Shown: piece after piece, positions 35,801-56,209 of the stretch
Numbering within the stretch: the first letter of the stretch is position 1
How the letters are laid out: every line of letters starts with the position of its first letter
Origin: Thermoplasmatota archaeon
GTDB lineage: Archaea; Thermoplasmatota; Poseidoniia; Poseidoniales; Thalassarchaeaceae
Assembly: GCA_036154155.1 (NCBI GenBank)
Contig: JAYZLP010000012.1
Location: forward strand, 22,393 to 86,392
Length of the DNA stretch: 64,000 nt
Direction: 5' to 3'
Notes under the pieces: generated by a model
What the model was told of the DNA's origin: nothing
The model's input: only the letters and a program-made list of their open reading frames with translations
Databases searched by the model: none
Program-made: the position numbers and the translations under genes

Positions 35801-38800
35801 ATTACTTCCAACCCTGCTGCAGGGGAGTTCCTCGACATTAGTGGAACTTTGACTTCAAGTAATGGAAGTGGAATAGTTGACAGATCAGGAAATGCCCTGA
35901 ATCCGACTCTAAACTTCGCCATCGACGGGGACACCAATTCGTTCTCAGTCACTGGTGGCACCGTAGATGCCAATGGCACATGGTCGGCCAGAATCTTCCT
36001 GGACCTTTCTTTCCCACGTGGTACGCACAATATCACCGCCTCATATACGCCGTCCGTCAACTACTATGGCGCCAGTTCGGAGGACGGAATTTTTGACAGC
36101 AGAGGTTTCTCCATGCTATCCATAATTTCCCCAACTGATTTGGACCCCGATGAGAGAACTGTCAGAGGGGACAACATCACACTCAACATGTCATTGATTG
36201 ACAACTCCGGGCAGTTCGTCTCCGGAGCCCAGGTCGATGTTTCCATAGACGGGACGCCAGCATGGTCCGGCCTCACGAATGAGGATGGCATCGTCACTAC
36301 TGTAATCCCGACTGATTCCAACAGGGCTCCCGGACCGATGACAATCACCGCCACATTTGCAGGCTTCAATGGGACCACTGGCCTACTGGGTGATGAGACA
36401 TGGACAAGAGTGGTGATACTCGCCCCAACGGTTCTAGATGTGACTTCAATTACAGGCTCCGCAATCGCAGGCGAGTCAGTCACGTTCACTGGAACCCTGC
36501 TGGACGAGCATGGTGCACCCCTGATCGAGAATGGCGAAGAAAAGGGAGGTGTCGTCCACCTTTCCATAGATGGAATCGACGTAGGTCCTGTGTACACTTC
36601 AATTTCAAACTCCTCTACTGGGATTTGGAGCATTACTTACGATTTACCTCTTGATACAGACTATGGGGGCCACACTTTCACCGTCGACTTCCTCGGCGGT
36701 TTCACTTGGGTCGATCCCATGGGCCAGGGCGACTCCCTGAATCCAGAATACTATCTCCCCTCCACAATAACACAGGAATTCAACGCGACCCAGACATCCC
36801 AGGTTGTTCTTACGACCCCCCCAGGGGAAGTCGACAGGAACGAGCTGCTTCTCATAGAGGGAATGCTGACCGATGGCGCCGGAAGGGTACTTCCCGGACG
36901 AGATCTAGATGTCTATATGAACGACCAATTCCTAACATCCCTCTCTGTATCCGACAATGGTACGTTTAGCTTATTCTTCCCCGTACCTCCGGACATGCCT
37001 CTCGGACCAAGGAATGTTAGGATAGAATTTGGTGGAGAGGAGTTCGTAATCGCCTCTAACTCTAGCACTATTTTCACCGTTTTCGGTCCTGTCGAGGTGA
37101 GTGTTGAACAACCGGTTCCGGTCGCTGTTGGAGACGTACTACAACTCAGTGGTTCCGTCAAGGATAACCTTCCGAATGGGTGGCTTGGAAACCACTCGCT
37201 CCAGATCTTTATTGATGGGATCCTGATAGGCACTACTACTACTGATGAGGACGGGGCATGGTCCCATTCTTGGGTAGTATCCGAGTTCCTAGACGTGGGT
37301 CAGCACACACTCACGGTAATAGCCCCGGATCAGGGATATCACCGCGAAGGCTCCGTAGAGGCAAACCTGACAATAGCATACCACACCGGAATGACACTGC
37401 AAGTCGAGAACAATGTGGTGACAAGGGGCGGCGCATGGAACCTAAGTGGTAGGCTATTCGACGCCGACTCTGACGGCAATCCAGGTTTGGAGGGCAGGGT
37501 GCTTTCCTTCCTGCTAGATGGTGAAGAGGTTTCCACCATTACTACAAGCATAGATGGAACATTCAGCATTAGTCATGAACTGGGTTACCTGATTTCAAGG
37601 GGTTCACACGATGTATCATTGGCCTTCGCCGGCGAACAGCTGTACCTTTCAAACGTGATCAATGCGACTGTGTATGCCAGAGCCGACATTCAGATAGAGA
37701 TTCTATTCCTTGAGGATGAGGTCGTCAGAAGCGATGGAAATAGGCCGATTAGGGTTCTCGGCAGGATAATTGAAATCGGTGGGGAGGGCAACACCATGGA
37801 GGAGATGGACCTCTCGCTATACTGGGAGGATTCTCTAAGGCCGAATACGAAGATAACATGGGATGAGACAACAGGGCAGTTCCTGGTCGAGTCGAATGCA
37901 ATTTCAACAATGCCTCCTGGTGTGGCCAGCATGTCGATAGTTGTGGACCCCGACTCCTCAAGGTTCCTGAATGGGGGCGAGATTGATTTCGAGGTGATAA
38001 TCAAGGTTCCAGTGAACTTTGAGTTCCTCCCCGACTCTTTGTTCCTAGAAATAGGTCAAAGCTCCATGTCAGGAAAGGTGAATGTCACTGCCACGGACAG
38101 GGCCGAGGTCATAGAAGGAGTTTCGATTACCGCTAGGCTAGTCAACGAGACCAGTACACATTTCACTGTGGTAGGGGTCACCGATCAGAATGGCATCTTC
38201 ACATATCAGTTCGAGTCATTCCATGAGAACCATCCTCTATGGGACAGGGACTTCTGGGGGGACTTGTCGGTAGAGTTCAGTTCCGATTCCGACATTATCG
38301 ACCCCATTGACGCTGCTCGACTCTCACAGTTCGCCGTTGTCGATGTAGAATATCAGCCGGAGCAGGGGGCATCATTGGTGGGCCCTGCAATGACCGCACT
38401 AGCCATCCTTGTGATAATCGGACTAGCCGCGGCTGGCGTAATTGTGCTAAGGAGGAGGAAACAGGCTGCCATCGATGAGCTAGCAGGGGTGTTCAGCTAC
38501 ACAGCAGAGCTCTTGGCAGCAGGAGATGAGGTCAGGGAGGCTATATTCAACTGCTATGAGGGACTCTGTCAGATACTGATGAGCAGAGGTTTCCTGAGGA
38601 GAGATTTCGAGACAGTCAGGGAGTTCGAGCTAGCAATAAGAAACGCACTCCCAATAAGCGAGCAGGCATTGTTGTCTCTCGACAGAATTTTCGAGGAGGC
38701 CAGATACTCAAGCCACGTTCTCGGCGAGCCCCATAGGGAGAGTGCCCAGATGGCACTGAGCTCAGTTCTCCAAGAGATAGACCAGCTCGAGGAAGTCCCA

Positions 38801-38833
38801 TCTAGGGAGGCCTCAATAGTCCCTCAGGAATGA
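29870..38833 (+). CDS. Giant (2987 aa) surface protein: signal peptide, TSP3-like Ca-binding repeats, transglutaminase-like core, many Ig/CARDB-like domains, C-terminal TM plus DUF4129-like cytoplasmic domain
   Basis: Uninterrupted 8.96-kb ORF. Repeated DTDGDG(I/L)PDGxE motifs. Transglutaminase-like core GDCDQFSTLFAVMLRSAGIPARKVTGF...TWVEVHL...GWIPFE. C-terminal TM ALAILVIIGLAAAGVIVLRRRK. About 125-aa cytoplasmic tail. Confidence 0.75.
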   Translation: MRSMDSFSQSTGSDKDGLRKVRSAIIFSALMLISSYSALEFAAWEALASTDQDGDGLSYGLEFYINTQPQDWDTDNDGLPDGWEWQYGLNPLSATGDNGSTGDPDGDSLSNLNELMFGIPANWDDPNTPNELDNGVWWNGTVPVSNWDEESAMQLIQGLGSDGADEDPWGNICFNTFDDDKDGMVDNFDGDGDGDANCTSDDDDGDGLIDEDPNGWDTDGDGMPDGWEVANGLDPTSRTNQDGASGDPDGDGLVNLKEFINPAWGTRNGTTTPPTQYFRPGPLAMTATESPCNPVLQLGPGGCLIFTAEVDGITSTDPQNNDTDGDGLNDSHEALVLLTDPTAPDTDGDGISDGVEVNGQYGDPPLASDPRDNNTDDDQFDDGEEDLNGNGIVDENETDPTRIEDSGDFDDDGIPNWEENMTCTLWNVADTDGGGISDGSELDPSHGTDPCTSLQTLNLTIVDFDSTNMILTLNDTSALDQTPEDWRQNGEPMGYYVSSTNGSLTGFRFTSINGDSLRGIDTDKPPDATSVTFVNFSWCWDQSLGFSNDPICDDDYFDTDGDGLADWEESTGSFGFLSDWNMSDTDGDGVNDLDEILNLTDPSNPCDNLLDSDGDGLNNYFENTTVCLIAFGELGGNGTTDTYFTLWNVTDTDNGGVTDFQEYLDGTNPQNNPNDDLNPVDTDGDGIPDTIENSTGTDWRDPDTDGGGVPDGQECTSEFWDINCLNADGNPWDPTDDIDPNMMFFEAMNTSMGVDPNITHYWRWHTYDFYTGISWGVNTSLVGNTQMFPGFSTTQGVADQQFWDGSEVLGWEISLESGALIFPGEEIIVPHNAVNYTGWTDANAGLNFSNFTRDAIVDGATIDTLFVTAPQVLITQAIRENTTEFSNSSYATDLPSSYLAKGNAASFVNSITMTVINESGAFSAWDRVSAIQDFIINGNSTTSFLRNHNGTEVGVLDDEDDLSYWILNNSFEGDCDQFSTLFAVMLRSAGIPARKVTGFSGGKWTGTSFEVYGKDFTTWVEVHLQTNSNLGNADLGWIPFEACPSLSTVEVVDESWGPIWFDRDLSSGNISLDGILRFTENQTSVANITIDMYLVKSNQTENVPGSAALEEHFVGTAITDENGSFNITGQPQEVINPGYGALVLRTYEDGYVGSQGITFPWRMNITDDVAMSITEPEPVDEPKIGIGVNTTVTGEISLSSEPYNDITQLDSLQVVLNYTTTADGPVSLISSVGAGGYYEFSVPIDESEQEGLIAATLNFLGWHEEDLNNATPPLYHLRPQSVGFNLNLTPAPNLTVILEGHGANNTILEIDQPIYLNGTVLSRSAIPEALNGTLTLQMRRSAANGPFTTLNSWYLNDSDWTGALGQFAVNWSFSASEVPIPAGLVEIRYQFEADGLFAKDESVVIDEHGVKSYVNFSYILNPAPVGSDSEVEVTLSDHTGNSVASFVGDYTLDFNGELVWNQSDPELPRVMVTWRPTIDVEAGDYPWQLNYSGSTWLLPNSVLDTVRVQGRADVSFTLGSDWTPRGQSSWISGFARDINLNSTILGNNSSIIVNMEVPSDQPPTPDGLEAPPVTYRLGEQWIDNTTGEYNITFQMPSGVGAGVYDLRLILDFEKNPPAGGAYYLVSGAVVLQAGVQTEYVVEAEPLQSIVIAGQTLVTNATVTDVESNDRLQNTTVDIYFDWGGPLQQVLNSTVTGSDGVARFTPTIPADAPPGYYDVRLHAPDDLTDSLTTPNAGRWIGNESTVNLTVQVASSIRIDNAPLPEVTAGQFFQLQGQVLDGVDQNRSVSGPMTLEVFFLNDPSETLVTGHVTAANGSFSIMVPTDPLGDGVTNGLKTVIVSVENGSTPFYLTGSGNETILVRGVTQFTERNPLLNTIVDRGTSITFGAKLVESSDGDRQLSDMSVSALFHETWLTPEQPTNGQGVVNFTFSVPHSHPLGLIPIVLMFNGSNGSDTLHPSSTVINTITVRSPTNITFDPITSNPAAGEFLDISGTLTSSNGSGIVDRSGNALNPTLNFAIDGDTNSFSVTGGTVDANGTWSARIFLDLSFPRGTHNITASYTPSVNYYGASSEDGIFDSRGFSMLSIISPTDLDPDERTVRGDNITLNMSLIDNSGQFVSGAQVDVSIDGTPAWSGLTNEDGIVTTVIPTDSNRAPGPMTITATFAGFNGTTGLLGDETWTRVVILAPTVLDVTSITGSAIAGESVTFTGTLLDEHGAPLIENGEEKGGVVHLSIDGIDVGPVYTSISNSSTGIWSITYDLPLDTDYGGHTFTVDFLGGFTWVDPMGQGDSLNPEYYLPSTITQEFNATQTSQVVLTTPPGEVDRNELLLIEGMLTDGAGRVLPGRDLDVYMNDQFLTSLSVSDNGTFSLFFPVPPDMPLGPRNVRIEFGGEEFVIASNSSTIFTVFGPVEVSVEQPVPVAVGDVLQLSGSVKDNLPNGWLGNHSLQIFIDGILIGTTTTDEDGAWSHSWVVSEFLDVGQHTLTVIAPDQGYHREGSVEANLTIAYHTGMTLQVENNVVTRGGAWNLSGRLFDADSDGNPGLEGRVLSFLLDGEEVSTITTSIDGTFSISHELGYLISRGSHDVSLAFAGEQLYLSNVINATVYARADIQIEILFLEDEVVRSDGNRPIRVLGRIIEIGGEGNTMEEMDLSLYWEDSLRPNTKITWDETTGQFLVESNAISTMPPGVASMSIVVDPDSSRFLNGGEIDFEVIIKVPVNFEFLPDSLFLEIGQSSMSGKVNVTATDRAEVIEGVSITARLVNETSTHFTVVGVTDQNGIFTYQFESFHENHPLWDRDFWGDLSVEFSSDSDIIDPIDAARLSQFAVVDVEYQPEQGASLVGPAMTALAILVIIGLAAAGVIVLRRRKQAAIDELAGVFSYTAELLAAGDEVREAIFNCYEGLCQILMSRGFLRRDFETVREFELAIRNALPISEQALLSLDRIFEEARYSSHVLGEPHRESAQMALSSVLQEIDQLEEVPSREASIVPQE
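30020..32100 (+). repeat. Intragenic array of about 20 thrombospondin-type-3-like calcium-binding repeats (DxDxDGxxDxxE) in the giant gene
   Basis: Repeated gayacygayggngayggn-type codon strings encode DTDNDGLPDGWE, DPDGDSLSNLNE, DTDGDGMPDGWE, DTDGDGISDGVE and similar. Confidence 0.6.
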
Positions 38834-42092: not shown

Positions 42093-44889
<2,797 letters not shown>

Positions 44890-44893
44890 GGCA

Positions 44894-45661
44894 TTAATCG
44901 ACATCATTTTGCTCCACGACCTCATCTTCGTGGAGGGATGATAGGAACTTCTTGAGCCTCTCAGTCTGAGGGCTGTTGATGATAGAGGAAGGCCCCTCTT
45001 CTGCCACAACTCCCTGGTCCATGTAGATAATTCGATCAGCTACATCCCTGGCAAAGCCAATCTCGTGAGTCACTACGACCATTGTCATTCCTTCGTCAGC
45101 AAGTCCACGGATGGTCTCCAACACCGAACCTATGAGTTCTGGATCAAGGGCGCTGGTCGGCTCATCGAAAAGCAGAACCTCCGGCTTCATGGCAAGGGCT
45201 CTGGCAATAGCAACACGCTGCTTCTGCCCGCCGGAAAGGTTGCCCGGGTAAGCATCAATCCTGTCGAGCATATCGACTCTTTCCAGAACTGACATTGCTA
45301 CTTCCTCTGCTTCCATCTTGCCCATACCTTTGACATGTCTCAGGCCCAATGTAATATTGTCAAGGACCCTAAGGTGCGCAAATAGCTCGAATGACTGGAA
45401 AACCATCCCTATCCTGGATCGCAAGTCATTTACATCGGTGTGAGGGGTGTTAACCTGCTCCTCCTTCAAGAAAATCTTGCCGTCAGTAGGTTCTATCAGT
45501 CGATTTATGCACCTTAGGACAGTCGACTTACCACTTCCAGATGATCCAATTATGGCAACAGACTCCCCTTGTTTTACTTCAAATGATATGCCCTTGACAG
45601 CATGAACGCCACCCGCATAAATCATATGCAGATCTTCCACGTCTAGTACCTTTTCTGGCAT
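44894..45661 (-). CDS. ABC transporter ATP-binding protein (polar amino acid type)
   Basis: Walker A GSSGSGKST, signature LSGGQKQRVAIARAL, Walker B LLFDEPTSALD. Confidence 0.9.
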   Translation of the reverse strand: MPEKVLDVEDLHMIYAGGVHAVKGISFEVKQGESVAIIGSSGSGKSTVLRCINRLIEPTDGKIFLKEEQVNTPHTDVNDLRSRIGMVFQSFELFAHLRVLDNITLGLRHVKGMGKMEAEEVAMSVLERVDMLDRIDAYPGNLSGGQKQRVAIARALAMKPEVLLFDEPTSALDPELIGSVLETIRGLADEGMTMVVVTHEIGFARDVADRIIYMDQGVVAEEGPSSIINSPQTERLKKFLSSLHEDEVVEQNDVD

Positions 45662-47857
45662 TCATTCACCTCCCGTAATACCTAGTCCCGGGATCCTAGT
45701 TTTTTCCTCTAGCCATCTTAGAATTAGGGCAAGAGTCCATGTGACCACGAAGTAGGATATCAGAACCATCCCCCAAGCATATGCATACTGGAACGTACTC
45801 GCAACGATCAACTTGCCCTGCCTAGTAAGCTCTGCATACCCAATTATCATGGCAAGGGACGAGTTCAATACCAGATTCACCATCTCATTTCCCATCGGAG
45901 GGATGCAGATCCGAATCGCCTGAGGCATGATGACTCGTCGCATAGTTTGCAAATATGTTAGGCCAATGCTCCTTCCTGCTTCCATCTGGGCCGAAGGTAT
46001 TGCCTGAATCGCCCCTCTGATGGTTTCGCATTGGTAGGCACCAGAATTGAATCCTAGTGCGCATATGGCACTGATGAATGCTGAGTCGTAGAGTACTCCC
46101 CCTATCAGCGTCCCATAATTGTCTTCAGAATGGTCGTATGTGGCAATAATGTCCGTCAGGAAGTTATGATTATTTTCCAGATTATCGAAGCTAAAAATTT
46201 CCAGTCCGGGTTCCTGGATAAGGGCCCCTAGCCTAAGGCCGAAATGGATGAATAGGAACTGGACAATTAACGGAGTGTTACGGAAGAAGTCTGTGTAAAC
46301 GGTCGCTATTGCGTTCAACGGTCTGACCTTCCAAGGATTTAGGGCGAATGGTCCAACCCTTACTTTCGAGAAATTACCATCATTGCTCAGGAATAGTGTA
46401 CCTAGGAACAATAGCGCAATTCCCAGAAGTATTTTGGCGAAAGAAACAGGTGCGCCAACTGGAAGGAAAACATACTCAATTCCCTGCAGCCCTAGATCAC
46501 TAGCCCCTGGTATGGCCGAATAAAATAGGTACAGTCCGCCTGCTAGAAGTGGAATCCCAACTAATCTGACATACTTAGCTTCGTAACGTTCTACAACGTA
46601 CCTAAGTGATGTCGGGGATGTTTTGCACATTGCAAGGGTGACTCCCAGTAGGAATCCCAGGATAATTCCGAATGCGACTATTTTCAGTGTCGCGATGAAT
46701 CCTGATAGGAACATTGCCTTAGTCTCATCAACAAAGACTCCGAAGTTCCCATATTCCGGTACGACGAATCCTAATTGATCGTCTGCACCAGCATTCTCGG
46801 TCCACAGTATCTTGCCCCCGTCGCCAACTGCAACGCCATTGAATCCAGTCAGCATTACAATGTCGTTGAAGTCACTATTGTTTCCAAGTGGGTTAATCTG
46901 CTGAGAAACAATTGTTCCGCCATTGATGCTCATTGAGATGTAGCCGCCTTCACCGGTCATCAGAAACTTCGACGTTGTTACTACTTCAATCGAAGTCAGC
47001 ACGACGTCAAGTGTCTCCGGACCAAGGACATATTCGTTCGATCCAGCGGGATAGTGCCTCTCGAACTCTACTAGTGTCCAAATGTACCCTACATCAGTCC
47101 CCGTCACTACGTTACTCATCGAGATTAGAATACTCCCATCATTCGTAATTGCGTAAATCCTAGTGGGGCTGTAGAACTCCACCGAGACGATTTCAGCATC
47201 ACCCGCTCCTTCGGGCGCCTCACGATACTCCCAACTTCCCCCTCCATCATCGGAAAATAGGATGGTTCCATCCGAGCCAACCACAATTCCTAGATTCTCA
47301 TCGAGAAACGAAACACCCAGTAGATCACTTTCTATGGACAGGTTTGTTTCCGCCCACGTCCCCCCCTCAAGATTCCATATTGTTCCATGGGCTCCCACGG
47401 CAACGGCGGTTTCACTCCCGGTCAACGAGATTCCATTCACAATAGATCCTTCGGGAAGGGAGATGTCTGTCCAAAGATCTCCACCGCTCTTCCTAAGCAT
47501 CATAAGTCCATTTTCTCCCGAAACCAGCAAGGACCCAAAACCCGAGTCCGAGTTTAGAATGTCACTTGTCGTGGGAGAATCGTAGGCAGCCCATGTAATT
47601 CCATTGTCATCACTGTGTAGCATCGCACCCCCTGTTCCGAATGCCCAAATTACGCCTTCAATTTCAGTAGCAGTAAGGAGATCCTCAGAAGTCCCGCTTT
47701 CTACTACTTCCCAACTGCTCTTGAAATCAGAGGCCTGGCTTGGATTCACTGAAGTCAATAGGAGTATCACTATTGAAATGGAAATTATGTTGGCAGCGCC
47801 CCTCATTCTTGTTGAATCGGAGAGCCGAGAATCCTCTTCGAACATGGTGAGCCCCAT
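45662..47857 (-). CDS. Fusion protein: N-terminal extracellular Ycf48/BNR-like beta-propeller domain plus C-terminal polar-amino-acid ABC permease domain
   Basis: Signal peptide, then repeated SxDxGxTW BNR-type motifs (SDDNGITWAAY, SDDGGGSWEY) over about 370 aa. After that a multi-TM permease with EAA loop motif EAGRSIGLTYLQTMRRVIMPQAIRICIPPMGNE. The true start may be MRGAAN at 47809. Confidence 0.7.
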   Translation of the reverse strand: MGLTMFEEDSRLSDSTRMRGAANIISISIVILLLTSVNPSQASDFKSSWEVVESGTSEDLLTATEIEGVIWAFGTGGAMLHSDDNGITWAAYDSPTTSDILNSDSGFGSLLVSGENGLMMLRKSGGDLWTDISLPEGSIVNGISLTGSETAVAVGAHGTIWNLEGGTWAETNLSIESDLLGVSFLDENLGIVVGSDGTILFSDDGGGSWEYREAPEGAGDAEIVSVEFYSPTRIYAITNDGSILISMSNVVTGTDVGYIWTLVEFERHYPAGSNEYVLGPETLDVVLTSIEVVTTSKFLMTGEGGYISMSINGGTIVSQQINPLGNNSDFNDIVMLTGFNGVAVGDGGKILWTENAGADDQLGFVVPEYGNFGVFVDETKAMFLSGFIATLKIVAFGIILGFLLGVTLAMCKTSPTSLRYVVERYEAKYVRLVGIPLLAGGLYLFYSAIPGASDLGLQGIEYVFLPVGAPVSFAKILLGIALLFLGTLFLSNDGNFSKVRVGPFALNPWKVRPLNAIATVYTDFFRNTPLIVQFLFIHFGLRLGALIQEPGLEIFSFDNLENNHNFLTDIIATYDHSEDNYGTLIGGVLYDSAFISAICALGFNSGAYQCETIRGAIQAIPSAQMEAGRSIGLTYLQTMRRVIMPQAIRICIPPMGNEMVNLVLNSSLAMIIGYAELTRQGKLIVASTFQYAYAWGMVLISYFVVTWTLALILRWLEEKTRIPGLGITGGE

Positions 47858-47930: not shown

Positions 47931-48908
47931 ATGAGAGGGACTGCCGCCATCCCAATTGTCCTGATATTGCTCTCTTGTTCATGGCTACCCGCATCAGGCG
48001 AAGCGTCCTATTCCATTGGCACTATTTCGGGCGAAGACTCCTCTCGTTTCGTTGCCCAGAATTCAAATTTGCAAGAAATGGAGTTTGAGGATGTACAATT
48101 TGCTATCAGGTCCCTAAGGGACGGCGAGGTCGACTTCGTAATCGGCCCTCATCATTTACTGACAGACTCCGAAATGATTGCTCAGTGGAATACAATTACC
48201 GTGGGCGAGATGTTCGATATTTCGGATTATTTCATCGCCATGATTAGATCAGATAATTCTCAGGATTCGGGGAATGAGGAACTAAGATATGCAGTTAATT
48301 CCGCACTGGCAGACATTCACCAGAGGGGAACCGCCATTTCCACACACCAACTTTGGTTCTCAGACATGCCCCAGTTAGATTTCTATGACTTCGAGGAGTA
48401 TGAGGATGCCTGGCCAACTCCAACGGAAGGCGGAACGCTCCACAGGATATTGTTTGAAGACGGAGACATCGGTGTCTGCATGCTGAACCAAGACTCCTCC
48501 ATGACTAGGTTCGGCGCCAGCGGGGAATTGGTCGGATTTGAGGTTGACATGGCAGAGATGATAGCCAATAGTATAGCTAGCCACTATGAGGTGGAACTCA
48601 CTCTTTACAGCCACAACAGTGGGGTTTTCGAGAATGTCCTCAGCGACTTGACCGAATCCGATTTATGTGATATCGCCATGGCTTCGGTTACGCCGGACCA
48701 AGTTCCCGGAGGCTTCACCTCTTCTTCCCCCTACCACGTCGGAGGGACTGTTATTCTTTCATCCGCCGAATCCCCCGGGATCGACTCTGCCGCTGAATTA
48801 TTTGATTCGGATCAGCCCAAGGATGATGAATCCGATTTTGATTTGAGAATAGTTGCAATATTGCTTCTTTCAGTATTCATATTGAGGGAAGCGGCCAGAA
48901 AGGACTGA
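47931..48908 (+). CDS. ABC transporter substrate-binding protein (amino acid type) with C-terminal membrane anchor
   Basis: Signal peptide (IPIVLILLSCSWLPASG), SBP-like length, C-terminal hydrophobic anchor (IVAILLLSVFIL). Divergent from the permease-ATPase pair. Confidence 0.55.
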   Translation: MRGTAAIPIVLILLSCSWLPASGEASYSIGTISGEDSSRFVAQNSNLQEMEFEDVQFAIRSLRDGEVDFVIGPHHLLTDSEMIAQWNTITVGEMFDISDYFIAMIRSDNSQDSGNEELRYAVNSALADIHQRGTAISTHQLWFSDMPQLDFYDFEEYEDAWPTPTEGGTLHRILFEDGDIGVCMLNQDSSMTRFGASGELVGFEVDMAEMIANSIASHYEVELTLYSHNSGVFENVLSDLTESDLCDIAMASVTPDQVPGGFTSSSPYHVGGTVILSSAESPGIDSAAELFDSDQPKDDESDFDLRIVAILLLSVFILREAARKD

Positions 48909-49866: not shown

Positions 49867-50493
49867 TTATGAGTGCCTTCTCATTAGAATCCCACATCCC
49901 CTTTTTTCTGCTGATCTTAGTATTGACAGAAGGTGCCTAAATCCATAGTCGACCCCTCCATCAAGTGGCTCATCTCCCAACGTAGTCCATCTTCCAGAAC
50001 GTATCGAGGACCTCAACTCACTAACTTCCTGCGGGTCAATCCACCCAAGAAGGGACATTCCACCGAAACCATCCCGGAATCCCGGTTCTCCAAGATTCTC
50101 TTCAGATAGCCCGTCACAAAGCTTAGCAAGCAACTCGTGCAATACAGTCATGTCACCCCTTTGCCTAGTGAACGAGATAAGGTACGAAATCACATTGCCG
50201 TCTTCACTGGGAAATCTGCCGAGCTTCTCTCTAGTCGCCATCGAGTCAAGAGGCTCAGCCATGCCTCCCTTAGGCCCCCAGTCCCCGCTAGCTAGGTACA
50301 GCAATGTGGCGGGATCAAACGGGGCCTCTTGGCCCTGACGGAGGCCTTGGATGTCAACAGACAGTGGGCACATAGAAAGCAACTCCTGGTGATCTCCGCC
50401 CAGGGATGCTTGAATTGGGGGAACAAGATCGATCAAGTCCACAGTAATTGGGTCGAATGTGTAGAATGCAGGAGTCGGAGGCGCTCTAGACAT
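49867..50493 (-). CDS. Hypothetical protein
   Basis: ORF-track entry is 216 aa; no recognised motif. Start trimmed to MSRAPP. The 3' end is flush against purC and the 5' end abuts the giant gene stop. Confidence 0.35.
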   Translation of the reverse strand: MSRAPPTPAFYTFDPITVDLIDLVPPIQASLGGDHQELLSMCPLSVDIQGLRQGQEAPFDPATLLYLASGDWGPKGGMAEPLDSMATREKLGRFPSEDGNVISYLISFTRQRGDMTVLHELLAKLCDGLSEENLGEPGFRDGFGGMSLLGWIDPQEVSELRSSIRSGRWTTLGDEPLDGGVDYGFRHLLSILRSAEKRGCGILMRRHS

Positions 50494-50506
50494 TGAGAAA
50501 CCCCGA

Positions 50507-53500
50507 TTACCTTTCACCCATGAGTCTGTTTAGGCGGCTTTCGAATGAATCGTCCTGACCAATTTCCGAGGCAGAAGTCCCCTCAGAGGTCACCTTTTCC
50601 CTATCTTCATCAGCAGATTCAGGCAAAACCTCCTCTTCGACATCGGCTATTTTCTCCTTGAGAGCGGCCCTTTTCTCAAGGGCCTTCTTCTCTACCGCCA
50701 ACCTAGTTTTCTCCATCATCTCTCGGCCTTCTCTGTAATTGCTGACCATCCATGAAAGTGCAATCGAAGCACCGATGACCATGGCAGCCGCGGCAACTGC
50801 CGTACTCGAATCGCTAATTCCACTATCCAATTCTTCGCCACCCGAAAGAATCACGCTGGCCACGTTATCCGAAGGATCAGAATCCTGGTCCCACGGGAAG
50901 TCACAGCTTATCGTGGCGACCATCTCGGTTGAATCCTCAACATCCGGCCTATCTATCGATGGCTTAGGGGCTAGGGCATTTGCAGATGTCATATCCACTA
51001 TGTGGACGGAAGTGTATTGCCCCGCTTCGATTTTTATGCTGCATTGCGTCCCTGAAGGGAGCAGTTCGAAATTTTCCCTCCTTGTGGAAATTTCAATTTT
51101 CTGGCTAGCACCCTGTCCATCCAGTTCTAGCTGAACCAAACCGACGTTCCAATCCGTTCTCCGAACTTCGAAAATCTGGGACTGGGACGTCACTAGGATT
51201 CCCCTAGAGTCCAGCAATCTGATTGAAATCTCCCTGTTACCCGGAAGTGGAGCCCATTCTTCCGAGGTCAAGTTGACTATTGCAGTCGTATTCCCCCCTA
51301 CAGTTCCGGATTGAGAAATCATCATGTCCCCCATGTCGTCGACTAGAATTATCGTGTAATCGAAAGGCTCGGTTCCATTTCCTATCGAACAGCTTGCCGT
51401 AATTTCGCCTATGCTGCCATAAACCAAGCAACTAGCCCCCCTGGTGACTGGCTCCACCACTATTGACCTGTATTCCAGACTTCCTTGGTCGGAACCCGAT
51501 GAAACCGAAATAGTGCCACTTCCACTGGATGTCGCCGGCCATGCCCAACCGCCAAGGGTACTCCAAATCAATGACCCTGAAAATGAATCAGTAACAATAG
51601 ATCCGGAATCAGTTCCATGAATTCCCAAAAGCGCGCTATCGCCACTAGTGGACACAATGACAGGGGAACTCGCCCATGAAAAATCCCCCTTCTCGGTATC
51701 CAGATTTATTTCCCTCTGGTTTCCGGCTGTATCTTCCGCCAGAATTCGTATGGTCTTTACACTGCCATCCCAGTCTTCACTAGGAACCAACTCTAGTGGT
51801 ACGCCGGTTACCTCGCCAACACCCAGTACGACCTCGGCTCTTCCTGAGACGGACCAACCAAGTGGAAGACTTAGGACTTGTAATGAGATGGTGCTAGGTG
51901 CGTTACCAAGGTTTTCGAGCATGGCCAATGGGTGTCCTCCCAAATCACTCACTAACCAGTCCCCTTCTCCGGTAAGAGAGAACTCATGCGTGACTGCCAC
52001 CCTTAGTGGGAAAACTATCTCGGAGGCCGCACTAGAGTCGCCTTCCCTTAGGCGGAGGTGAAGCTCCACGGCCCTTCCATAGACCGCATTCTCTGGAGGG
52101 GTGATGTTGAGAATTAGTGGCGCAGTCTCCCCTGGTGAAAGGACGGGGAGCTCGTCGGGCTCATCTACGGACCACCCTGACTCCCCTGTAATGAACATGG
52201 AAGCATATGCTCTAGTGGGCGAGTTACCAGACTGCACAACTGTGAGCTCTATCTGCGAACCTAATGGGTCGACCTCAAGATTCGCCTGATCAGCTATCGC
52301 GTTCCATGATGGGACATGGCCTGCCTCGATAGTGAATGAGAACGTAGAAACCTCTTCTCCTTGGGAGGATGCGGTGACTACGACGGTCATGGATGATCCG
52401 CTCCATGATTCAGCATCGACAGCTGAAACTATGCTCATAGAAACAGTCTGGTTGACTGCGACATTTTGCGCCGAGTCCCCAGTGGCGCTCCATCCTGTAG
52501 CCGAGTCCCCGTCCACTAGGTCAAGCGAGGTCACCACATCAAGATCGATTCCATCTTCCAGATTGCCCACATTTTTTGCATCAACGTCCAAGGAGAACGA
52601 GACTCCCGGATCAATGACGAAAATACTGCCATTGGCCATAGGTACAGAATCGACACTAGCGCCGATATCCCACCTGTGGTCCTGCCTGGCCTCAAGGGCA
52701 ACGGCGTCGGAGGATGATACTCCTGGATCGCCTTGTGAAATTACGGTGAACTCAATCCACAATGGAACTCCTGCAGGCGTACTTTCAGGTAGAGTTACCG
52801 TTACTGGAATAGTTGTCAGGCTCCCCGAAGTAAGTCCGACTTCTCCTATTGAGAAATCCACAACTACTCCAGGGTCGCTGGAAATATTGGAGTCTATAAT
52901 CACCGAATAGCCAAGTGAGTATACGTCATCTCCGTTACCGGGATTCTCGAGTCTGAGGACGACAAGGGAGCCTTCCTCAACATCAACCACATGCGGCTGA
53001 TCTTGGGGCGAAATTACAGCCACATTCGCTCTGAAAATCTGCAATACCTCCAACGTTATGATTAGGTGGTGTTCCGAAGACTCCTGACTCGTGTCCGAGA
53101 AATAGTGGAATGCCGGAGAAGCATCCTCGGGGAGGTTAGCAATTAACGAACCCGAAGATGTTCCGCCAGAGGGTCCGGCCATAGTTATCATATCACCCGA
53201 AACTGAGATGTCACCAGTTCCGACCCAGGACCACCCTGGCATTGCCATCCCCATTTCAGAAAGTGACCATGTGATTGTCCCGCTTTCAGCCGGCATTTCA
53301 GAAATTATCGACCATTCGAGTCCATTCGCGGGAACACTTCTGATGTGATTTCCAGAAACAACGTTCGAAGAATGGAATGTCAATTGTATGGTCTGGCATG
53401 TCTCTTCTTCCGTGCCCGTGCCAACGCACATGGTTAGAGGCGTGCCAACGGAATCTCCCACTGGTGCGTCGGAAGGAACCGCTAGGGTTGCAACTAACGC

Positions 53501-56137
53501 CAACTCTTCTCCAGGAGCCAAAATTAACGCTGACCTTTCGACCCCCTCCATGTCGTATAGTCGTAGGTCATTGCCCCATGGCGTGCTGTCCCATGAGAGG
53601 AGAATCTGGTCTTCCTCGGCATTTCCTAGATTCTCGGCCATGAACCATGCCCCTGCATCTTGACCAGGTAGTCCGTAGCCGCTGCTCTGAGATGTTCCAT
53701 CGGGCCCTCTAAGTGAGAGTCCCCTTGTTCTATTCGCCTCTATTGGAAGATTCGCAGAAACAGAAACGTTCGAGTCTTCATCGAGGGTCAGGGTCAGTGA
53801 TAGGTATCCCGAGTCCGAACCCAGTGCTTCGGAAGGCGCAGTTATGGTAAGATCAGGGGACCACGTCTCATCCACTCCAATCTCGACATTGCTAATTCCT
53901 TCCTGCGTGGAGTCCGACCACGTCCAACCCTCAGGAAGTTCGGAGTCATCTACGCTGAGGGACCATGTCCCAGCGAGCCTCCCAGTAGATCTCACAGTCG
54001 GGCTAGCAGTAGTGCTACTGCCCGGAGATACCCTGATGGGCTCAGTCGGAATTTCGAAAGAAGCATTGTACGTCGGGACGATGGATACAATCTTGCTAGC
54101 AATGTCATTGTCCGTCCTAGTCTGAGTCAGGTTCCCGAAACTGTCTAGCTCCAATGTGAACTCATGGTCCCCAAGTGGCCCCGACCATTCAACACTGAAT
54201 GTTTCAAAGGATCCTGATCCCGTTGGCTCAACGGGTTCCAGAGATGTGAATGTCCTCCTCCCAATTTCCATTCCATCGGCATAGAGGACCGCATCAAATT
54301 CCGAATCTATGGGCCCTGTTCCAGAGTTCTCGATAAATGCAGACACCGTGACTTCCTCGCCCGGACTGGGGGCAGTTGGATCCAACTCTATCCCACCTCC
54401 ATCAAGGAGGGGCCTAACGTCGGACCTCTCTAGCGAGACAACGGTGCTACCGATGATGATGTCCAGAGTGCCGTCTCCATCGATGTCGGCCAACGCAGGT
54501 GAAGACCAAGTTCGGTGGTTCAGCTCTAACTCATTGGCCCATTCAGTGTTGATAGCAGACCCAGTTCCCTCCGCTCCATCGAACGCCCATAGGGATCTCC
54601 CATAGGCGACTAGGAGCTCAGGCTCCCCACTACCGTCAATATCCATCCAAACTGGGGGTGAGACAGCTATCTCGTCGTTTGGCGCCCCACTGCTCTGCTC
54701 GAGATCCCGGTGCCATGCCTCCTCGGGGCTAGAGCCATCGACATCATGACAACCTGTGACTCCGTGTCTAGCTGTTGCAGTTTGCCACCAAGTGACCCAA
54801 CAGACTCTCTCGATGGTCCCATCATCGTCTGTATCGATAACAATCGGCGGCGCGTCAGCGTATCCATTATCTGCCTCAAATGACCATATCTCAGCACCGG
54901 TGCTGATTTCTAGGCCTCTGAATTCAGCGCCATCAACAGCACCTGACCCGTCGGCATCTGTAGGTATGGTTACTACAATTTCAGGAGTCTCATCACTATC
55001 TAGATTGGCTACAACTGGGCCAGGGAGTCTGATGTGAGGCGCATCAGAGTCGCCATCTATGTTATTCAGGCTAAGGCCGTCCCATCCTGAATCCCCCGTC
55101 AACGAGTCAAGCCTCCAAACCCACATTCCGCCATTGCTGTACTCAGTGGTCGTCAATACAACATATCCAGTATTCTCATCCGTCTGTGCAAAGGCAGGGT
55201 CAGAAGGATGGCTCCCCTTGTCCAGTGTTTTTTCCCACAGCGTGGCGGGTGAGCCGCTAGAAGGCAGACTCAGTGCAACAATAACCGGATCCCCACTGTT
55301 CTCGTTTACCGCGGCAATTACCAACTCTGCATCTCCATCAAGGTCCAAGTCGGCAAGAAGTGGCTGGGCAGTTGGCTTGTGCCCCCCCAGCCATCCACTG
55401 ACATATGGCCCAACGTCACTACTCACCATCAAGTCGTCATCCTCCCAAGTCCAGATTGGCTGTTGCGAACTACCCGCTCCGGGGTTCCATCCGGTAACCG
55501 AGCAGAATAGTCTGGGCGACCAAGCATCGACATTCAGAGTCCCGCCTTGGTCATACACCGCTATCACCTCCGGCTTCCCATCGTCATCCAAGTCCACAAC
55601 TACAGGTGAGGCCTTGACTTTCTCTGTAACTCCGAGACTAACTTCCCATGCTAGATCAGAGTCCTCTCCCTCAATGATCCTCATGTAACTCTCACCTGAT
55701 GCAGAGTCAGTCTGTACAATTATGGTGTAAAGCGAGTCTCCTCCGCACCTCTCTTCCGAGGAAGGGTCAGTGGATAGGGACGAGGTGAAATCAGCAATAG
55801 GGGTGCCAAGAGAATCAGTACCTATTGGATCGGAACCAAAATCCCAGTTTATCACCGGGTCGACTATTGAAAGTAGGCCGGCCCCTGAATCCGAAGAATG
55901 CACATGGCCTGGAGGATTGGAAACCCTATCGGGAGTCCTACCCGGTTGTGGCCAGGCTTGGCCGCCGTCCGACCAGGGGTCAATTCCGGAACTCCTCATT
56001 TCATGGGAATCATCCAGGCTCCTCGAAACCCCTGTAGTGGCCAACATTGGCGATAGTGACATAGCTAGCATAATCGACACCGCAAAAGCTGCCCCAATTT
56101 TCATGGAAAGGAGTTTTTGCGTAGTAACAACTGTCAT
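50507..56137 (-). CDS. Giant (about 1876-1894 aa) surface protein with FG-GAP/integrin-alpha-like beta-propeller repeats, multiple CARDB/Ig-like domains, C-terminal TM and coiled-coil cytoplasmic tail
   Basis: Signal peptide (MKIGAAFAVSIMLAMSLSPMLA). FG-GAP-type Ca-binding loops (VVDLDDDGKPEVIA, LADLDLDGDAELVIA, VANLDSDETPEIVV, IDTDDDGTIERV, LADIDGDGTLDIIIG). TM AVAAAAMVIGASIALSWMV, then a 78-aa K/E-rich tail. The ORF track starts at a GTG at 56191; start set at the first plausible ATG. Confidence 0.7.
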   Translation of the reverse strand: MTVVTTQKLLSMKIGAAFAVSIMLAMSLSPMLATTGVSRSLDDSHEMRSSGIDPWSDGGQAWPQPGRTPDRVSNPPGHVHSSDSGAGLLSIVDPVINWDFGSDPIGTDSLGTPIADFTSSLSTDPSSEERCGGDSLYTIIVQTDSASGESYMRIIEGEDSDLAWEVSLGVTEKVKASPVVVDLDDDGKPEVIAVYDQGGTLNVDAWSPRLFCSVTGWNPGAGSSQQPIWTWEDDDLMVSSDVGPYVSGWLGGHKPTAQPLLADLDLDGDAELVIAAVNENSGDPVIVALSLPSSGSPATLWEKTLDKGSHPSDPAFAQTDENTGYVVLTTTEYSNGGMWVWRLDSLTGDSGWDGLSLNNIDGDSDAPHIRLPGPVVANLDSDETPEIVVTIPTDADGSGAVDGAEFRGLEISTGAEIWSFEADNGYADAPPIVIDTDDDGTIERVCWVTWWQTATARHGVTGCHDVDGSSPEEAWHRDLEQSSGAPNDEIAVSPPVWMDIDGSGEPELLVAYGRSLWAFDGAEGTGSAINTEWANELELNHRTWSSPALADIDGDGTLDIIIGSTVVSLERSDVRPLLDGGGIELDPTAPSPGEEVTVSAFIENSGTGPIDSEFDAVLYADGMEIGRRTFTSLEPVEPTGSGSFETFSVEWSGPLGDHEFTLELDSFGNLTQTRTDNDIASKIVSIVPTYNASFEIPTEPIRVSPGSSTTASPTVRSTGRLAGTWSLSVDDSELPEGWTWSDSTQEGISNVEIGVDETWSPDLTITAPSEALGSDSGYLSLTLTLDEDSNVSVSANLPIEANRTRGLSLRGPDGTSQSSGYGLPGQDAGAWFMAENLGNAEEDQILLSWDSTPWGNDLRLYDMEGVERSALILAPGEELALVATLAVPSDAPVGDSVGTPLTMCVGTGTEEETCQTIQLTFHSSNVVSGNHIRSVPANGLEWSIISEMPAESGTITWSLSEMGMAMPGWSWVGTGDISVSGDMITMAGPSGGTSSGSLIANLPEDASPAFHYFSDTSQESSEHHLIITLEVLQIFRANVAVISPQDQPHVVDVEEGSLVVLRLENPGNGDDVYSLGYSVIIDSNISSDPGVVVDFSIGEVGLTSGSLTTIPVTVTLPESTPAGVPLWIEFTVISQGDPGVSSSDAVALEARQDHRWDIGASVDSVPMANGSIFVIDPGVSFSLDVDAKNVGNLEDGIDLDVVTSLDLVDGDSATGWSATGDSAQNVAVNQTVSMSIVSAVDAESWSGSSMTVVVTASSQGEEVSTFSFTIEAGHVPSWNAIADQANLEVDPLGSQIELTVVQSGNSPTRAYASMFITGESGWSVDEPDELPVLSPGETAPLILNITPPENAVYGRAVELHLRLREGDSSAASEIVFPLRVAVTHEFSLTGEGDWLVSDLGGHPLAMLENLGNAPSTISLQVLSLPLGWSVSGRAEVVLGVGEVTGVPLELVPSEDWDGSVKTIRILAEDTAGNQREINLDTEKGDFSWASSPVIVSTSGDSALLGIHGTDSGSIVTDSFSGSLIWSTLGGWAWPATSSGSGTISVSSGSDQGSLEYRSIVVEPVTRGASCLVYGSIGEITASCSIGNGTEPFDYTIILVDDMGDMMISQSGTVGGNTTAIVNLTSEEWAPLPGNREISIRLLDSRGILVTSQSQIFEVRRTDWNVGLVQLELDGQGASQKIEISTRRENFELLPSGTQCSIKIEAGQYTSVHIVDMTSANALAPKPSIDRPDVEDSTEMVATISCDFPWDQDSDPSDNVASVILSGGEELDSGISDSSTAVAAAAMVIGASIALSWMVSNYREGREMMEKTRLAVEKKALEKRAALKEKIADVEEEVLPESADEDREKVTSEGTSASEIGQDDSFESRLNRLMGER

Positions 56138-56190
56138 CAGAGTCAAATTTGGTTTTCGTAACCCACTTGAACGTTCGCCCCATATTCTCA

Positions 56191-56209
56191 CTCAGACCTA
56201 CGGTCTGAG
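56191..56209. promoter_or_regulatory. 8-bp inverted repeat (CTCAGACC-TAC-GGTCTGAG) followed by ATATAT in the divergent region between the giant surface-protein gene and the rpoE operon
   Basis: Read directly: ctcagacc tac ggtctgag, then catatatc. Confidence 0.3.

Follow-up and report, generated by a model that had tools for sequence, protein, structure and literature searches.

The window, a 64,000-nucleotide stretch of a Thalassarchaeaceae genome (contig JAYZLP010000012.1), carries on its reverse strand a single uninterrupted ORF (45662..47857, 731 aa) in which a signal peptide is followed by an extracellular seven-bladed propeller of the Ycf48 type and then by a PAAT ABC permease. The initial annotation had proposed just this joining of an ABC permease to an extracellular Ycf48/BNR-type propeller, and a domain search, which it had suggested as a check, recovers both parts above their Pfam cut-offs: PSII_BNR with 46.1 bits (cut-off 27) and BPD_transp_1 with 67.8 bits (cut-off 26.4, residues 511-716). 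No publication describing a propeller-permease fusion was found in a literature search, and the protein is apparently an undescribed, widely conserved variation on a very familiar transporter. We favor, at somewhat better than even confidence, a homodimeric type I amino-acid importer in which the propeller most likely assists the translocator as a module for interaction or capture, tethered in cis on the outer side of the cell.

To our knowledge, the extracellular partner of a type I ABC importer is always a two-lobe binding protein, be it free, anchored or fused. Here, the fold permanently attached at the binding-protein position is a propeller instead, in agreement with the earlier view that this is not a standard ABC architecture. 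The arrangement is conserved in abundant planktonic archaea as well as in Asgard archaea, and the propeller is retained where the dedicated binding protein appears to have been lost from the locus. Should the propeller take part in capture or gating, the known repertoire of ABC importer receptors would widen, with a bearing on amino-acid acquisition by Marine Group II archaea, which are thought to live on proteins and peptides.

One continuous gene in two phyla

The same continuous ORF occurs in at least 120 of 158 matching protein clusters (90%-identity clusters, among the matches listed). Full-length fusions are present in at least 80 species-level genomes of the Poseidoniales, an uncultivated group, and those carriers that are labelled mostly belong to Thalassarchaeaceae/MGIIb. 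The family comprises about seven 50%-identity clusters plus a tier from Heimdallarchaeota, in which a shorter, five-helix fusion repeats both the PSII_BNR+BPD_transp_1 architecture and the SBP/fusion/ATPase layout, so that the search for the fusion in relatives, also suggested at the outset, was positive in both groups. This recurrence refutes the alternative that a frameshift, a mis-assembly or a sequencing error joined two genes: the ORF is unbroken at 100 independently assembled loci, single-cell genomes and a 1.6 Mb contig from long reads carry it whole, it exists in a second phylum, and dN/dS is low across the propeller-permease junction. We give an artefact a vanishingly small probability.

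Table 1. Parts of the fusion protein and its partner genes, in window coordinates
Feature	Coordinates	Strand	Basis
N-terminal region, Sec-type signal peptide, residues 1-42	47732..47857	-	hydropathy, conserved S-Q-A at -3/-1
Seven-bladed Ycf48-like (PSII_BNR) propeller, residues 44-360	46778..47728	-	Pfam, AF2, Foldseek
Aromatic linker propeller-TM1, residues 361-382	46712..46777	-	invariant columns
Permease TM1, residues 383-414, outside to inside	46616..46711	-	ArtQ alignment, hydropathy
Insertion 1, residues 415-510, two extra TM helices	46328..46615	-	ArtQ alignment, hydropathy
Permease TM2, residues 511-542, invariant YTDFFRNTPLIVQF motif	46232..46327	-	ArtQ alignment, HEQRo_perm_3TM
Insertion 2, residues 543-591, acidic extracellular TM2-TM3 loop	46085..46231	-	ArtQ alignment, charge counts
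Permease core TM3-TM5, EAA loop, C-terminal IPGLG	45662..46084	-	BPD_transp_1, ArtQ 4YMS
EAA loop, residues 616-655	45893..46012	-	ArtQ alignment
ABC ATPase, GlnQ/TcyN-like	44894..45661	-	ABC_tran, GlnQ model
Circularly permuted SBP_bac_3, signal peptide and C-terminal TM anchor	47931..48908	+	SBP_bac_3, AncQR alignment

A propeller without enzymatic or photosystem function

The N-terminal signal peptide claimed earlier is supported by a hydropathy scan, which places its hydrophobic core at residues 21-37, and by a S-Q-A at -3/-1 that is conserved in an alignment of the fusions (A1). The region has a dN/dS of ~0.3, typical of a signal sequence, and is predicted to be cleaved.

In the AF2 model, the domain that follows folds into 28 strands, that is, seven blades of four (residues 49-353, pLDDT 85-92). 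Its best structural matches in Foldseek are the Ycf48 structures 5OJR and 2XBG (E 7e-15, TM 0.74), and the top 12 matches are all Ycf48 chains, at 17-18% identity; a profile built from alignment A1 likewise finds Ycf48 (E 8.5e-20). A lack of propeller similarity, named beforehand as an observation that would speak against the fusion, is thus not what was found. The repeated Asp-box blades described with it are a different matter: the propeller stands, while the repeats come down to two strict motifs (82 SDDNGITW and 202 SDDGGGSW), the other blades being degenerate. Together with a Pfam BNR score of 18 bits, below the cut-off of 27, and 27 bits for the glycosylhydrolase model F510_1955, far under its cut-off of 175, this scarcity of Asp boxes led us to reject a sialidase or glycosidase activity.

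We also rejected the notion of a Ycf48 orthologue. The Ycf48 equivalog model NF010237 gives the fusion 48.9 bits against a cut-off of 326. Ycf48/HCF136 (2XBG, 5OJR, 8AM5), which has the seven-bladed fold and the PSII_BNR family in common with the fusion propeller, is an assembly factor on the lumenal face that docks on D1 through a conserved arginine-rich patch and binds the D1 C-terminal tail (PMC11449106). In 5OJR this patch reads SSRG / NRTTSRRL. The window propeller has no such patch: the complete list of its lysines and arginines is K46, R122, K123, R212, R233, R267, K297 and K349, none of them clustered in 329 residues, and because the phmmer alignment to Ycf48 is blade-shifted and positional equivalence approximate, this argument is drawn from overall K/R content. 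Acidic residues prevail (48 D+E versus 8 K+R). Moreover, Ycf48 is a free lumenal protein or lipoprotein of an oxygenic phototroph, whereas here the propeller is fused to an ABC permease, and we know of no photosystem II in Poseidoniales or Heimdallarchaeota. The propeller is no enzyme, nor does it act as a photosystem factor.

Whatever its task, the propeller is under purifying selection, with dN/dS values of 0.06-0.25 overall (typically ~0.1) and of 0.06-0.09 in comparisons with the window sequence. What both phyla conserve in the propeller is, for the most part, structural glycines and tryptophans plus one arginine, R233 (alignment A4), and we saw no conserved polar pocket or obvious ligand site among these residues. 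Outside the fusion family, a homologue search with the propeller by itself gave at best 28% identity. Apparently stand-alone propellers of 346-355 aa (60-81% identity), each on a single contig of ~1-6 kb, are probably fragments. Giant proteins with 5 to 21 propeller-like stretches also surfaced and were set aside as ordinary bacterial multi-propeller secreted proteins of the YCF48-related/Sortilin type that offer no functional lead.

The linker to the membrane domain has a dN/dS of 0.04-0.09, with G363, F364, F372, F375, V376, D377 and K380 invariant within Poseidoniales in alignment A1 and a similar motif, F-x-D-F/W...Y/F, in the Heimdall-type sequences. In the AF2 model, the linker and membrane domain are of low confidence (pLDDT 30-70), such that any contact between propeller and TMD is unreadable.

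A PAAT permease with two insertions

The closest solved permease is that of Art(QN)2 from Caldanaerobacter (Thermoanaerobacter) tengcongensis (4YMS, E 1e-34 with the profile), a homodimeric amino-acid importer. TM1, TM2 and TM3-TM5 of ArtQ, including the EAA loop, are collinear with the fusion. Specifically, TM1 aligns to ArtQ residues 13-46 and has a hydropathy maximum of 2.57, TM2 aligns to residues 48-79 and contains columns invariant in alignments A1 and A4, and the core matches over residues 592-721 (E 1e-31). In line with the polar-amino-acid permease with an EAA loop described earlier, residues 616-655 align to the corresponding part of 4YMS, with an EAA region reading MEAGRSIG...MPQAIRICIPP. 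This coupling loop lies between TM3 and TM4 on the cytoplasmic side and is rich in K/R. Within it, MEAGRSIGLTYLQTMRRVIMPQAIRICIPP (residues 625-654) is invariant across both phyla, as is the C-terminal IPGLG motif (alignment A4). The TM3-TM5 core has a dN/dS of only 0.01-0.03.

Unlike the fusion, ArtQ is a protein of 220 aa with five TM helices and neither an extracellular domain nor insertions. The inserted loop region noted in the permease is real but is not a single loop, for there are two insertions (residues 415-510 and 543-591). Insertion 1, which falls between residues 46 and 48 of ArtQ and has no equivalent there, comprises two helices (~429-450 and ~462-490) backed by hydropathy and the positive-inside pattern and joined by a conserved extracellular loop (L457, E461, P466, G468 and P470 in A1); it is missing or shorter in the Heimdall-type fusions. 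Insertion 2 is acidic (8 D+E, 1 K+R) and differs in length between clades in A1; ArtQ has only ~6 residues at this place.

Because the two extra helices are inserted as a pair, topology is preserved, and the charges of the five-TM core obey the positive-inside rule in an N-out, C-in orientation. The proposed topology check accordingly came out with the acidic propeller and acidic loops outside and the K/R-rich loops, as well as the EAA loop, in the cytoplasm, in keeping with the alignment to ArtQ. TM1 of PAAT permeases is oriented N-out, which is why an extracellular domain fits at the N terminus.

As to family, HEQRo_perm_3TM (TIGR01726) scores 64.6 bits against a cut-off of 42.2, its match broken into two stretches by insertion 1. 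The best full-length NCBIfam models are GlnP, cystine and ectoine permeases, all of them below their equivalog cut-offs (GlnP 122 versus 303 bits, TcyL 118 versus 300, EhuC 117 versus 197), so the substrate is assignable at the class level only.

A coupled ATPase in a housekeeping neighborhood

The ATPase gene lies immediately downstream, as first read from the sequence: the two genes meet without a gap in TGAATG, preceded by GGAGGTGA, and are translationally coupled. The product scores 130.7 bits with Pfam ABC_tran and 283 bits with the GlnQ model, short of the equivalog cut-off of 379, and an ATPase follows the fusion directly at every locus with room for it. The syntenic neighborhood is a housekeeping block of the core genome, with ribosomal proteins, SAICAR synthase and GDH, and a defence or mobile-element context was rejected on this account. 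A gene for a surface protein of ~1,880 aa is syntenic 2-4 kb upstream of the fusion in all lineages examined.

A permuted binding protein as partner

On the other side, 73 nt from the fusion gene, the separate SBP reported in the initial annotation is indeed divergently encoded and scores 36.1 bits with SBP_bac_3 (cut-off 26.4). Its residues 29-144 align to AncQR 124-232 and its residues 196-282 to AncQR 28-107; with the halves re-ordered, one contiguous match results (profile positions 15-131). In Poseidoniales and Heimdallarchaeota alike, the partner is a circular permutant of a binding protein that is anchored through its C terminus. This architecture is kept in other clades, and the permuted SBPs exhibit two different cut points around one shared junction. 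An AF2 model of the window protein, made with close homologues only as input, was uninformative (mean pLDDT 32.5). Partner SBPs of the Heimdall type match Lys/Arg/Orn- and Gln-binding proteins strongly (174 bits; AncQR, E 2e-37), which speaks to the substrate class. The permuted anchored SBPs show how a scaffold that has been studied intensively can be permuted in nature.

The permuted SBP appears to be a dedicated partner of the fusion: in 31 of 31 metagenome loci that carry it, it adjoins the fusion gene where the contig allows, and it was never seen apart from that gene among these loci. The reverse does not hold. An SBP beside the fusion is detectable at 18 of 80 Poseidoniales genome loci and went undetected at the other 62, although at a few of these the upstream sequence does not reach far enough for a verdict; in three diverged lineages there is none within +-10 kb. 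In the tree of the fusions, clades with and without the SBP are interspersed, and the adjacent SBP gene seems to have been lost at least three times in Poseidoniales. Even so, propellers from loci that lack the SBP gene show no relaxation of selection (median dN/dS 0.114, versus 0.097 in SBP-bearing clades). The SBP itself evolves much faster, with 30-36% identity between clades compared to 63-74% for the propellers.

A propeller at the position of the GlnP binding domains

A near parallel is GlnPQ of Lactococcus lactis, like the fusion a PAAT system, with one permease gene and a GlnQ-type ATPase. It is a homodimer with N-terminal tethered substrate-binding domains (PMC8025302). In GlnP, a signal peptide, an extracytoplasmic domain, a short linker and the N-out end of the permease succeed one another in the same order as in the fusion. 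The tethered domain of GlnP, however, has the two-lobe SBP fold, whereas that of the fusion is a seven-bladed propeller, and Pfam and NCBIfam profiles give no SBP_bac_3 match inside the fusion protein; the fusion thus shares with the GlnPQ/OpuA type the covalently attached extracytoplasmic domain, not the two-lobe SBP. Also unlike GlnPQ, it is accompanied by a separate SBP gene in some lineages, and two additional TM helices and a larger extracellular loop set its permease apart.

Since there is a single permease gene with a coupled ATPase, and both Art(QN)2 and GlnPQ are homodimeric, the complex would consist of two fusion permeases and two GlnQ-like ATPases. Once the signal peptide is cleaved, the propeller would reside outside the cell, tied via the 22-residue aromatic linker to the N-out TM1 and sitting where GlnP carries its substrate-binding domains. 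From there, it may hold a partner or ligand (an anchored binding protein, a peptide or a protein) over the translocation pore. Against this reading, Ycf48-like propellers are not known to bind amino acids, and no obvious ligand site stands out among the residues conserved in both phyla. In the lineage of the window, substrate would presumably be delivered by the divergently encoded permuted anchored SBP. We infer the import direction, the amino-acid substrate and the binding role of the propeller.

That Ycf48-type propellers can work on the outer face of membrane machines has precedents in the docking of Ycf48 on D1 and in a bacterial Ycf48-like BNR protein (COG4447) whose gene sits with those for an RND-type exporter, DUF1302 and DUF1329. 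Cofitness and gene clustering tie the latter functionally to the transporter in organisms that do not photosynthesize (bioRxiv 072470). This bacterial protein stands alone rather than being fused, and it partners an RND exporter, not an ABC importer.

The initial annotation had suggested that the propeller could be a second substrate-capture or recognition domain. This idea is strengthened somewhat by the loss of the adjacent SBP in most lineages and by the purifying selection that persists on the propeller. A stronger version would make the propeller the substrate receptor itself, handing an amino acid, a peptide or a derivative to the permease and rendering the SBP dispensable. Its position at the site of the GlnP binding domains would suit this role, as would the absence of the SBP from about three-quarters of the genome loci after three or more losses, with fusion and ATPase persisting and propeller dN/dS unchanged, and the failure to find the permuted SBP apart from the fusion gene in metagenome loci. 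Yet the Heimdall-type operons, apparently older than those of Poseidoniales, and several Poseidoniales clades keep the SBP beside the fusion, so the propeller did not arise as a substitute for the SBP. It is normally the docking of a closed two-lobe SBP that triggers a type I importer, a further point against a propeller as receptor, as is the lack of an evident conserved polar pocket. Besides, an SBP from elsewhere in the genome could supply the transporter; Thalassarchaeaceae do possess an aapJ-type receptor, which has a transporter of its own (PMC9723583). Overall, we hold a receptor function to be rather unlikely, and the specific claim that the tethered propeller takes on the receptor role for a type I ABC importer in the many Thalassarchaeaceae lineages that lost the dedicated SBP to be slightly unlikelier. 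If true, it would mean a non-SBP beta-propeller class of receptors in highly abundant surface-ocean archaea.

Alternatively, the propeller would be a mere docking platform or chaperone that keeps the permuted anchored SBP beside the translocator. The MalF P2 loop of the E. coli maltose importer, a large extracytoplasmic permease domain that contacts the binding protein, sets a precedent for a permease-borne SBP-docking domain, although it is an internal loop of a different fold in a different transporter family, and no homology between it and the fusion was detected. The exclusive co-location of permuted SBP and fusion in two phyla and the protein docking by which Ycf48 works point the same way. 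A platform of this kind is nonetheless improbable in light of the unrelaxed selection on the propeller after SBP loss and of the divergence between slowly evolving propellers and fast SBPs, which is unlike a tight co-evolving interface.

Finally, the propeller might have no part in substrate delivery at all and instead position the transporter in the envelope, for example through the S-layer or the giant surface proteins encoded close by, or aid the assembly of another membrane complex in the manner of Ycf48. The upstream surface protein gene, the frequency of PSII_BNR/Sortilin-type propellers in secreted and surface proteins and the fact that Ycf48 is an assembly factor would all be compatible with such a role. 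The synteny, though, lies in a housekeeping core-genome block and is hence weak evidence, Heimdall-type loci keep the fusion without the ~1,880-aa surface protein as neighbor, and the maintenance of a covalent fusion in two phyla speaks for a task tied to the transporter. We regard a purely envelope- or assembly-related function as very doubtful, and return to the tethered interaction or capture module as the preferred reading.

Public annotation of the fusion varies among 'ABC transporter permease subunit', 'YCF48-related protein' and 'photosystem II stability/assembly factor-like', the last two of which are misleading names for this protein.

A single-frame fusion of propeller and permease

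An earlier reading, the initial annotation, had described a BNR/Ycf48 propeller fused to an amino-acid ABC permease, with the ATPase downstream and a substrate-binding protein (SBP) encoded divergently. This description proved correct, since a single open reading frame holds both Pfam domains and both neighbors were found through Pfam, NCBIfam and the ORF layout. The N-terminal half of the fusion matches PSII_BNR (46.1 bits; cut-off, 27) and the C-terminal half BPD_transp_1 (67.8 bits; cut-off, 26.4). The NCBIfam signature of His/Glu/Gln/Arg/opine permeases is also present (64.6 bits; cut-off, 42.2); the top full-length models, those for GlnP and for cystine and ectoine permeases, all fall far short of their equivalog cut-offs. 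Fusion stop and ATPase start form a TGAATG junction, the ATG directly following the stop, with a GGAGGTGA motif preceding it.

Features of the transporter locus and of the proteins compared
Feature	Position	Strand	Remark
Fusion ORF	45662..47857	-	single 731-aa frame
Insertion 1	residues 415-510		two extra hydrophobic helices, conserved extracellular loop between
Insertion 2	residues 543-591		acidic extracellular TM2-TM3 loop
E..T.IPGLG tail	45662..45700	-	residues 717-731
GlnQ/TcyN-like ABC ATPase	44894..45661	-	downstream of fusion; Pfam and NCBIfam
Family-3 SBP, permuted	47931..48908	+	divergent from fusion, 73 nt apart
Permuted SBP, related locus L118	98-1063	-	
Permuted SBP, related locus L119	21-1061	-	
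Glutamate dehydrogenase and HD-domain protein	43525..44889, 42093..43409	+	glutamate dehydrogenase ends 4 nt from ATPase stop, convergent
216-aa ORF	49867..50517	-	no Pfam match
Large acidic protein	50507..56191	-	1,894 aa
Large acidic protein	29870..38833	+	2,987 aa
Large acidic protein	26863..29796	+	977 aa

The fusion is conserved in two archaeal phyla

At least 120 of the 158 90%-identity protein clusters that matched show the full-length architecture, with identity as low as 46%. A pattern scan of species-representative genomes gave 153 relatives; the best 80, which we analyzed, all carry the same fusion and are all Poseidoniales, the family-labelled members being Thalassarchaeaceae/Thalassarchaeum (MGIIb). 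These 80 include a long-read contig of 1.6 Mb as well as genomes from single cells, and the window is 98% identical to MAG UBA438 (L003). This recurrence across clusters, single-cell genomes and a long-read contig rules out an assembly artefact, and an artefactual fusion is vanishingly improbable.

In an exhaustive search covering 1.84 billion representatives, the long form found in Poseidoniales comprised about seven 50%-identity clusters, followed by a second tier of 560- to 634-aa proteins at 37 to 40% identity. All seven second-tier proteins scanned contain PSII_BNR and BPD_transp_1. They derive from hydrothermal-vent and marine-sediment contigs (Heimdallarchaeota where named) and show the same order of divergent SBP, fusion and ATPase as the window. 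The giant matches in this search were rejected as relevant relatives, being ordinary bacterial multi-propeller secreted proteins; the nearest named non-fused permeases are from Hodarchaeales. Public annotation pipelines already name such proteins by their two domains, and a full-text literature search returned no description or discussion of the propeller-permease fusion. The fusion is of interest because it is conserved both in archaea that are abundant worldwide and in the Asgard group; the permuted SBPs and the extra transmembrane pair add to this.

Anatomy of the permease

An alignment to ArtQ of the homodimeric Art(QN)2 importer (4YMS; family profile, E 1e-34) places fusion residues 381-414 at TM1, 511-542 at TM2 and 592-721 at TM3-TM5. 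Because these segments lie apart, the permease has two insertions, and the inserted region proposed initially is real. The two extra helices were absent from all four second-tier sequences read. The positive-inside rule is satisfied, with 0 and 1 K+R in the two extracellular loops and 4 each in the cytoplasmic loops and the EAA loop, a pattern that puts the propeller outside and these K/R-richer loops in the cytoplasm. The N-terminal hydrophobic stretch terminates in a conserved S-Q-A, where we infer signal-peptide cleavage. Ahead of TM1, the 22-residue linker is conserved and aromatic, which argues against a floppy tether.

The permease core and the C-terminal IPGLG motif are invariant in both phyla. 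The cytoplasmic tail as a whole, E..T.IPGLG, does not vary between the fusions of Poseidoniales and those of Heimdallarchaeota; it is missing from the aligned end of ArtQ and may be an ATPase contact or regulatory motif. Insertion 1 is enlarged in the fusions of 781-802 aa (L019, L023, L026, L028, L035-L049), in L080 (863 aa) and in P0176 (865 aa). This expansion, present in several SBP-less clades, adds a further 60-130 residues after TM1 and ahead of the extra helix pair, among them one more hydrophobic segment and the conserved motif NP...AAS.

The propeller resembles Ycf48 but is not its orthologue

AlphaFold2, run with 34 homologues, modelled residues 49-353 at pLDDT 85-92 as 28 strands in seven four-stranded blades, while the membrane part was poorly modelled. 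Ycf48 structures occupied the top Foldseek ranks (E 7e-15; target TM, 0.74; 17-18% identity), above generic WD40 propellers, and the family profile matched Ycf48 at E 8.5e-20. Together with PSII_BNR, the model and this ranking confirm an N-terminal propeller; of the repeated Asp-box blades initially described, however, only two have a strict Asp box (residues 82 and 202). Propeller residues invariant in both phyla are mostly Gly/Trp, plus R233. The domain has 48 D+E versus 8 K+R. Outside the fusion family, the nearest propellers, free bacterial Ycf48-like and T9SS-sorted proteins, drop abruptly to 28% identity or less.

The propeller cannot be counted as a Ycf48 orthologue: its hosts, to our knowledge, lack photosystem II, it scores 48.9 bits against the Ycf48 equivalog (cut-off, 326), and its eight scattered K/R residues make an arginine patch impossible. 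Ycf48, in contrast, docks on D1 through such a patch (PMC11449106), which reads SSRG/NRTTSRRL in 5OJR. What the two may have in common is a mode of action, since Ycf48 is a propeller that acts on a membrane complex from its outer side, binding a protein tail (PMC11449106). The second precedent is bacterial: a Ycf48-like protein that shows cofitness with an RND transporter (bioRxiv 072470).

Given the single permease gene, the homodimeric nearest solved relative (4YMS) and the same-family homodimer GlnPQ, which has N-terminal tethered domains (PMC8025302), the best interpretation of the system is a homodimeric importer of the PAAT type. The propeller sits where GlnP has its binding domains. On the strength of this position and of the Ycf48 and RND-linked precedents, we lean toward the propeller being a cis-tethered interaction or capture module that would serve the translocator. 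We consider it unlikely that the propeller is itself the receptor, and very unlikely that it has an envelope-anchoring or assembly role.

A permuted binding protein, probably lost repeatedly

Relative to the canonical Gln/Arg-binding protein AncQR (4ZV1), our alignment reference, the window SBP is circularly permuted: residues 29-144 align to AncQR 124-232, and 196-282 to 28-107. With its halves in canonical order, the SBP_bac_3 match went from partial (profile 15-97) to contiguous (15-131), and a second clade's SBP, re-joined likewise, matched contiguously over profile 1-131. Signal peptide, permuted domain, acidic linker and C-terminal TM anchor make up the SBP in all SBP-bearing Poseidoniales clades. 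Heimdall-type SBPs, those of the shorter fusions, are permuted at another point (residues 94-289 align to AncQR 10-200, and 29-61 to 200-232); in canonical numbering, the cuts fall at about 115-124 in Poseidoniales and about 200 in Heimdallarchaeota. Common to both are the old-termini junction, ...KWF-linker-PTxTxGGTL, and the C-terminal anchor. One junction with two cut sites suggests a tandem-duplication ancestor, followed by different truncations in the two lineages. Scanning metagenomes for this motif gave 31 loci, in all of which the SBP adjoins the fusion gene where the contig reaches; the permuted SBP is therefore a dedicated partner of the fusion.

Among the best 80 of the 153 genome relatives, the ATPase follows the fusion wherever the locus leaves room for it, whereas an SBP is detectable in only 18. 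In loci without a detectable SBP, a SAICAR-synthase gene abuts the fusion gene at a gap of 100-200 nt, and three diverged lineages have no SBP gene within ±10 kb of the fusion. SBP-bearing and SBP-less clades interleave on a neighbor-joining tree of 100 full-length fusions, which implies at least three changes of SBP state; as all the SBPs are homologous, losses are the simplest account. A highly transcribed aapJ-type receptor, accompanied by transporter genes of its own, is likewise encoded in Thalassarchaeaceae (PMC9723583). Such a receptor might conceivably serve the fusion system too.

Comparison with close homologues gave dN/dS values of 0.06-0.09 in the propeller, 0.07-0.08 in TM1 together with insertion 1 and 0.01-0.025 in the permease core; the signal region stood at about 0.3. 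The propeller median is 0.097 in SBP-bearing versus 0.114 in SBP-less pairs and, by this measure, selection on the propeller has not eased with the loss of the SBP. These medians weaken the idea that the propeller does nothing but dock the SBP, as does an SBP identity of 30-36% where the clades' propellers are 63-74% identical; we hold this idea distinctly improbable. That a dedicated SBP was lost repeatedly while the propeller was kept is a further reason for interest.

SBPs are only 30-36% identical between clades with fusions 65-87% identical (L005, L008, L009, L012, L050, L051 and L079, set against the window SBP), which points to very fast evolution or SBP replacement. The window-clade SBP is the outlier; those of L005 and L050 seem more alike than their fusions are.

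Neighboring genes

In most lineages, though not all, glutamate dehydrogenase and an HD-domain protein keep synteny with the transporter; the former may be a weak hint of glutamate/glutamine use or merely reflect core-genome synteny. The three very large acidic proteins are probably secreted or surface proteins. Homologues of the 1,894-aa protein give weak FG-GAP/CARDB matches and those of the 2,987-aa protein Transglut_core/MG2-like matches; in the long-form (Poseidoniales) lineages examined, both sets show synteny with the transporter. The 216-aa ORF, 43-99% identical among Poseidoniales loci, adjoins the SAICAR-synthase or giant surface-protein gene in many of them.
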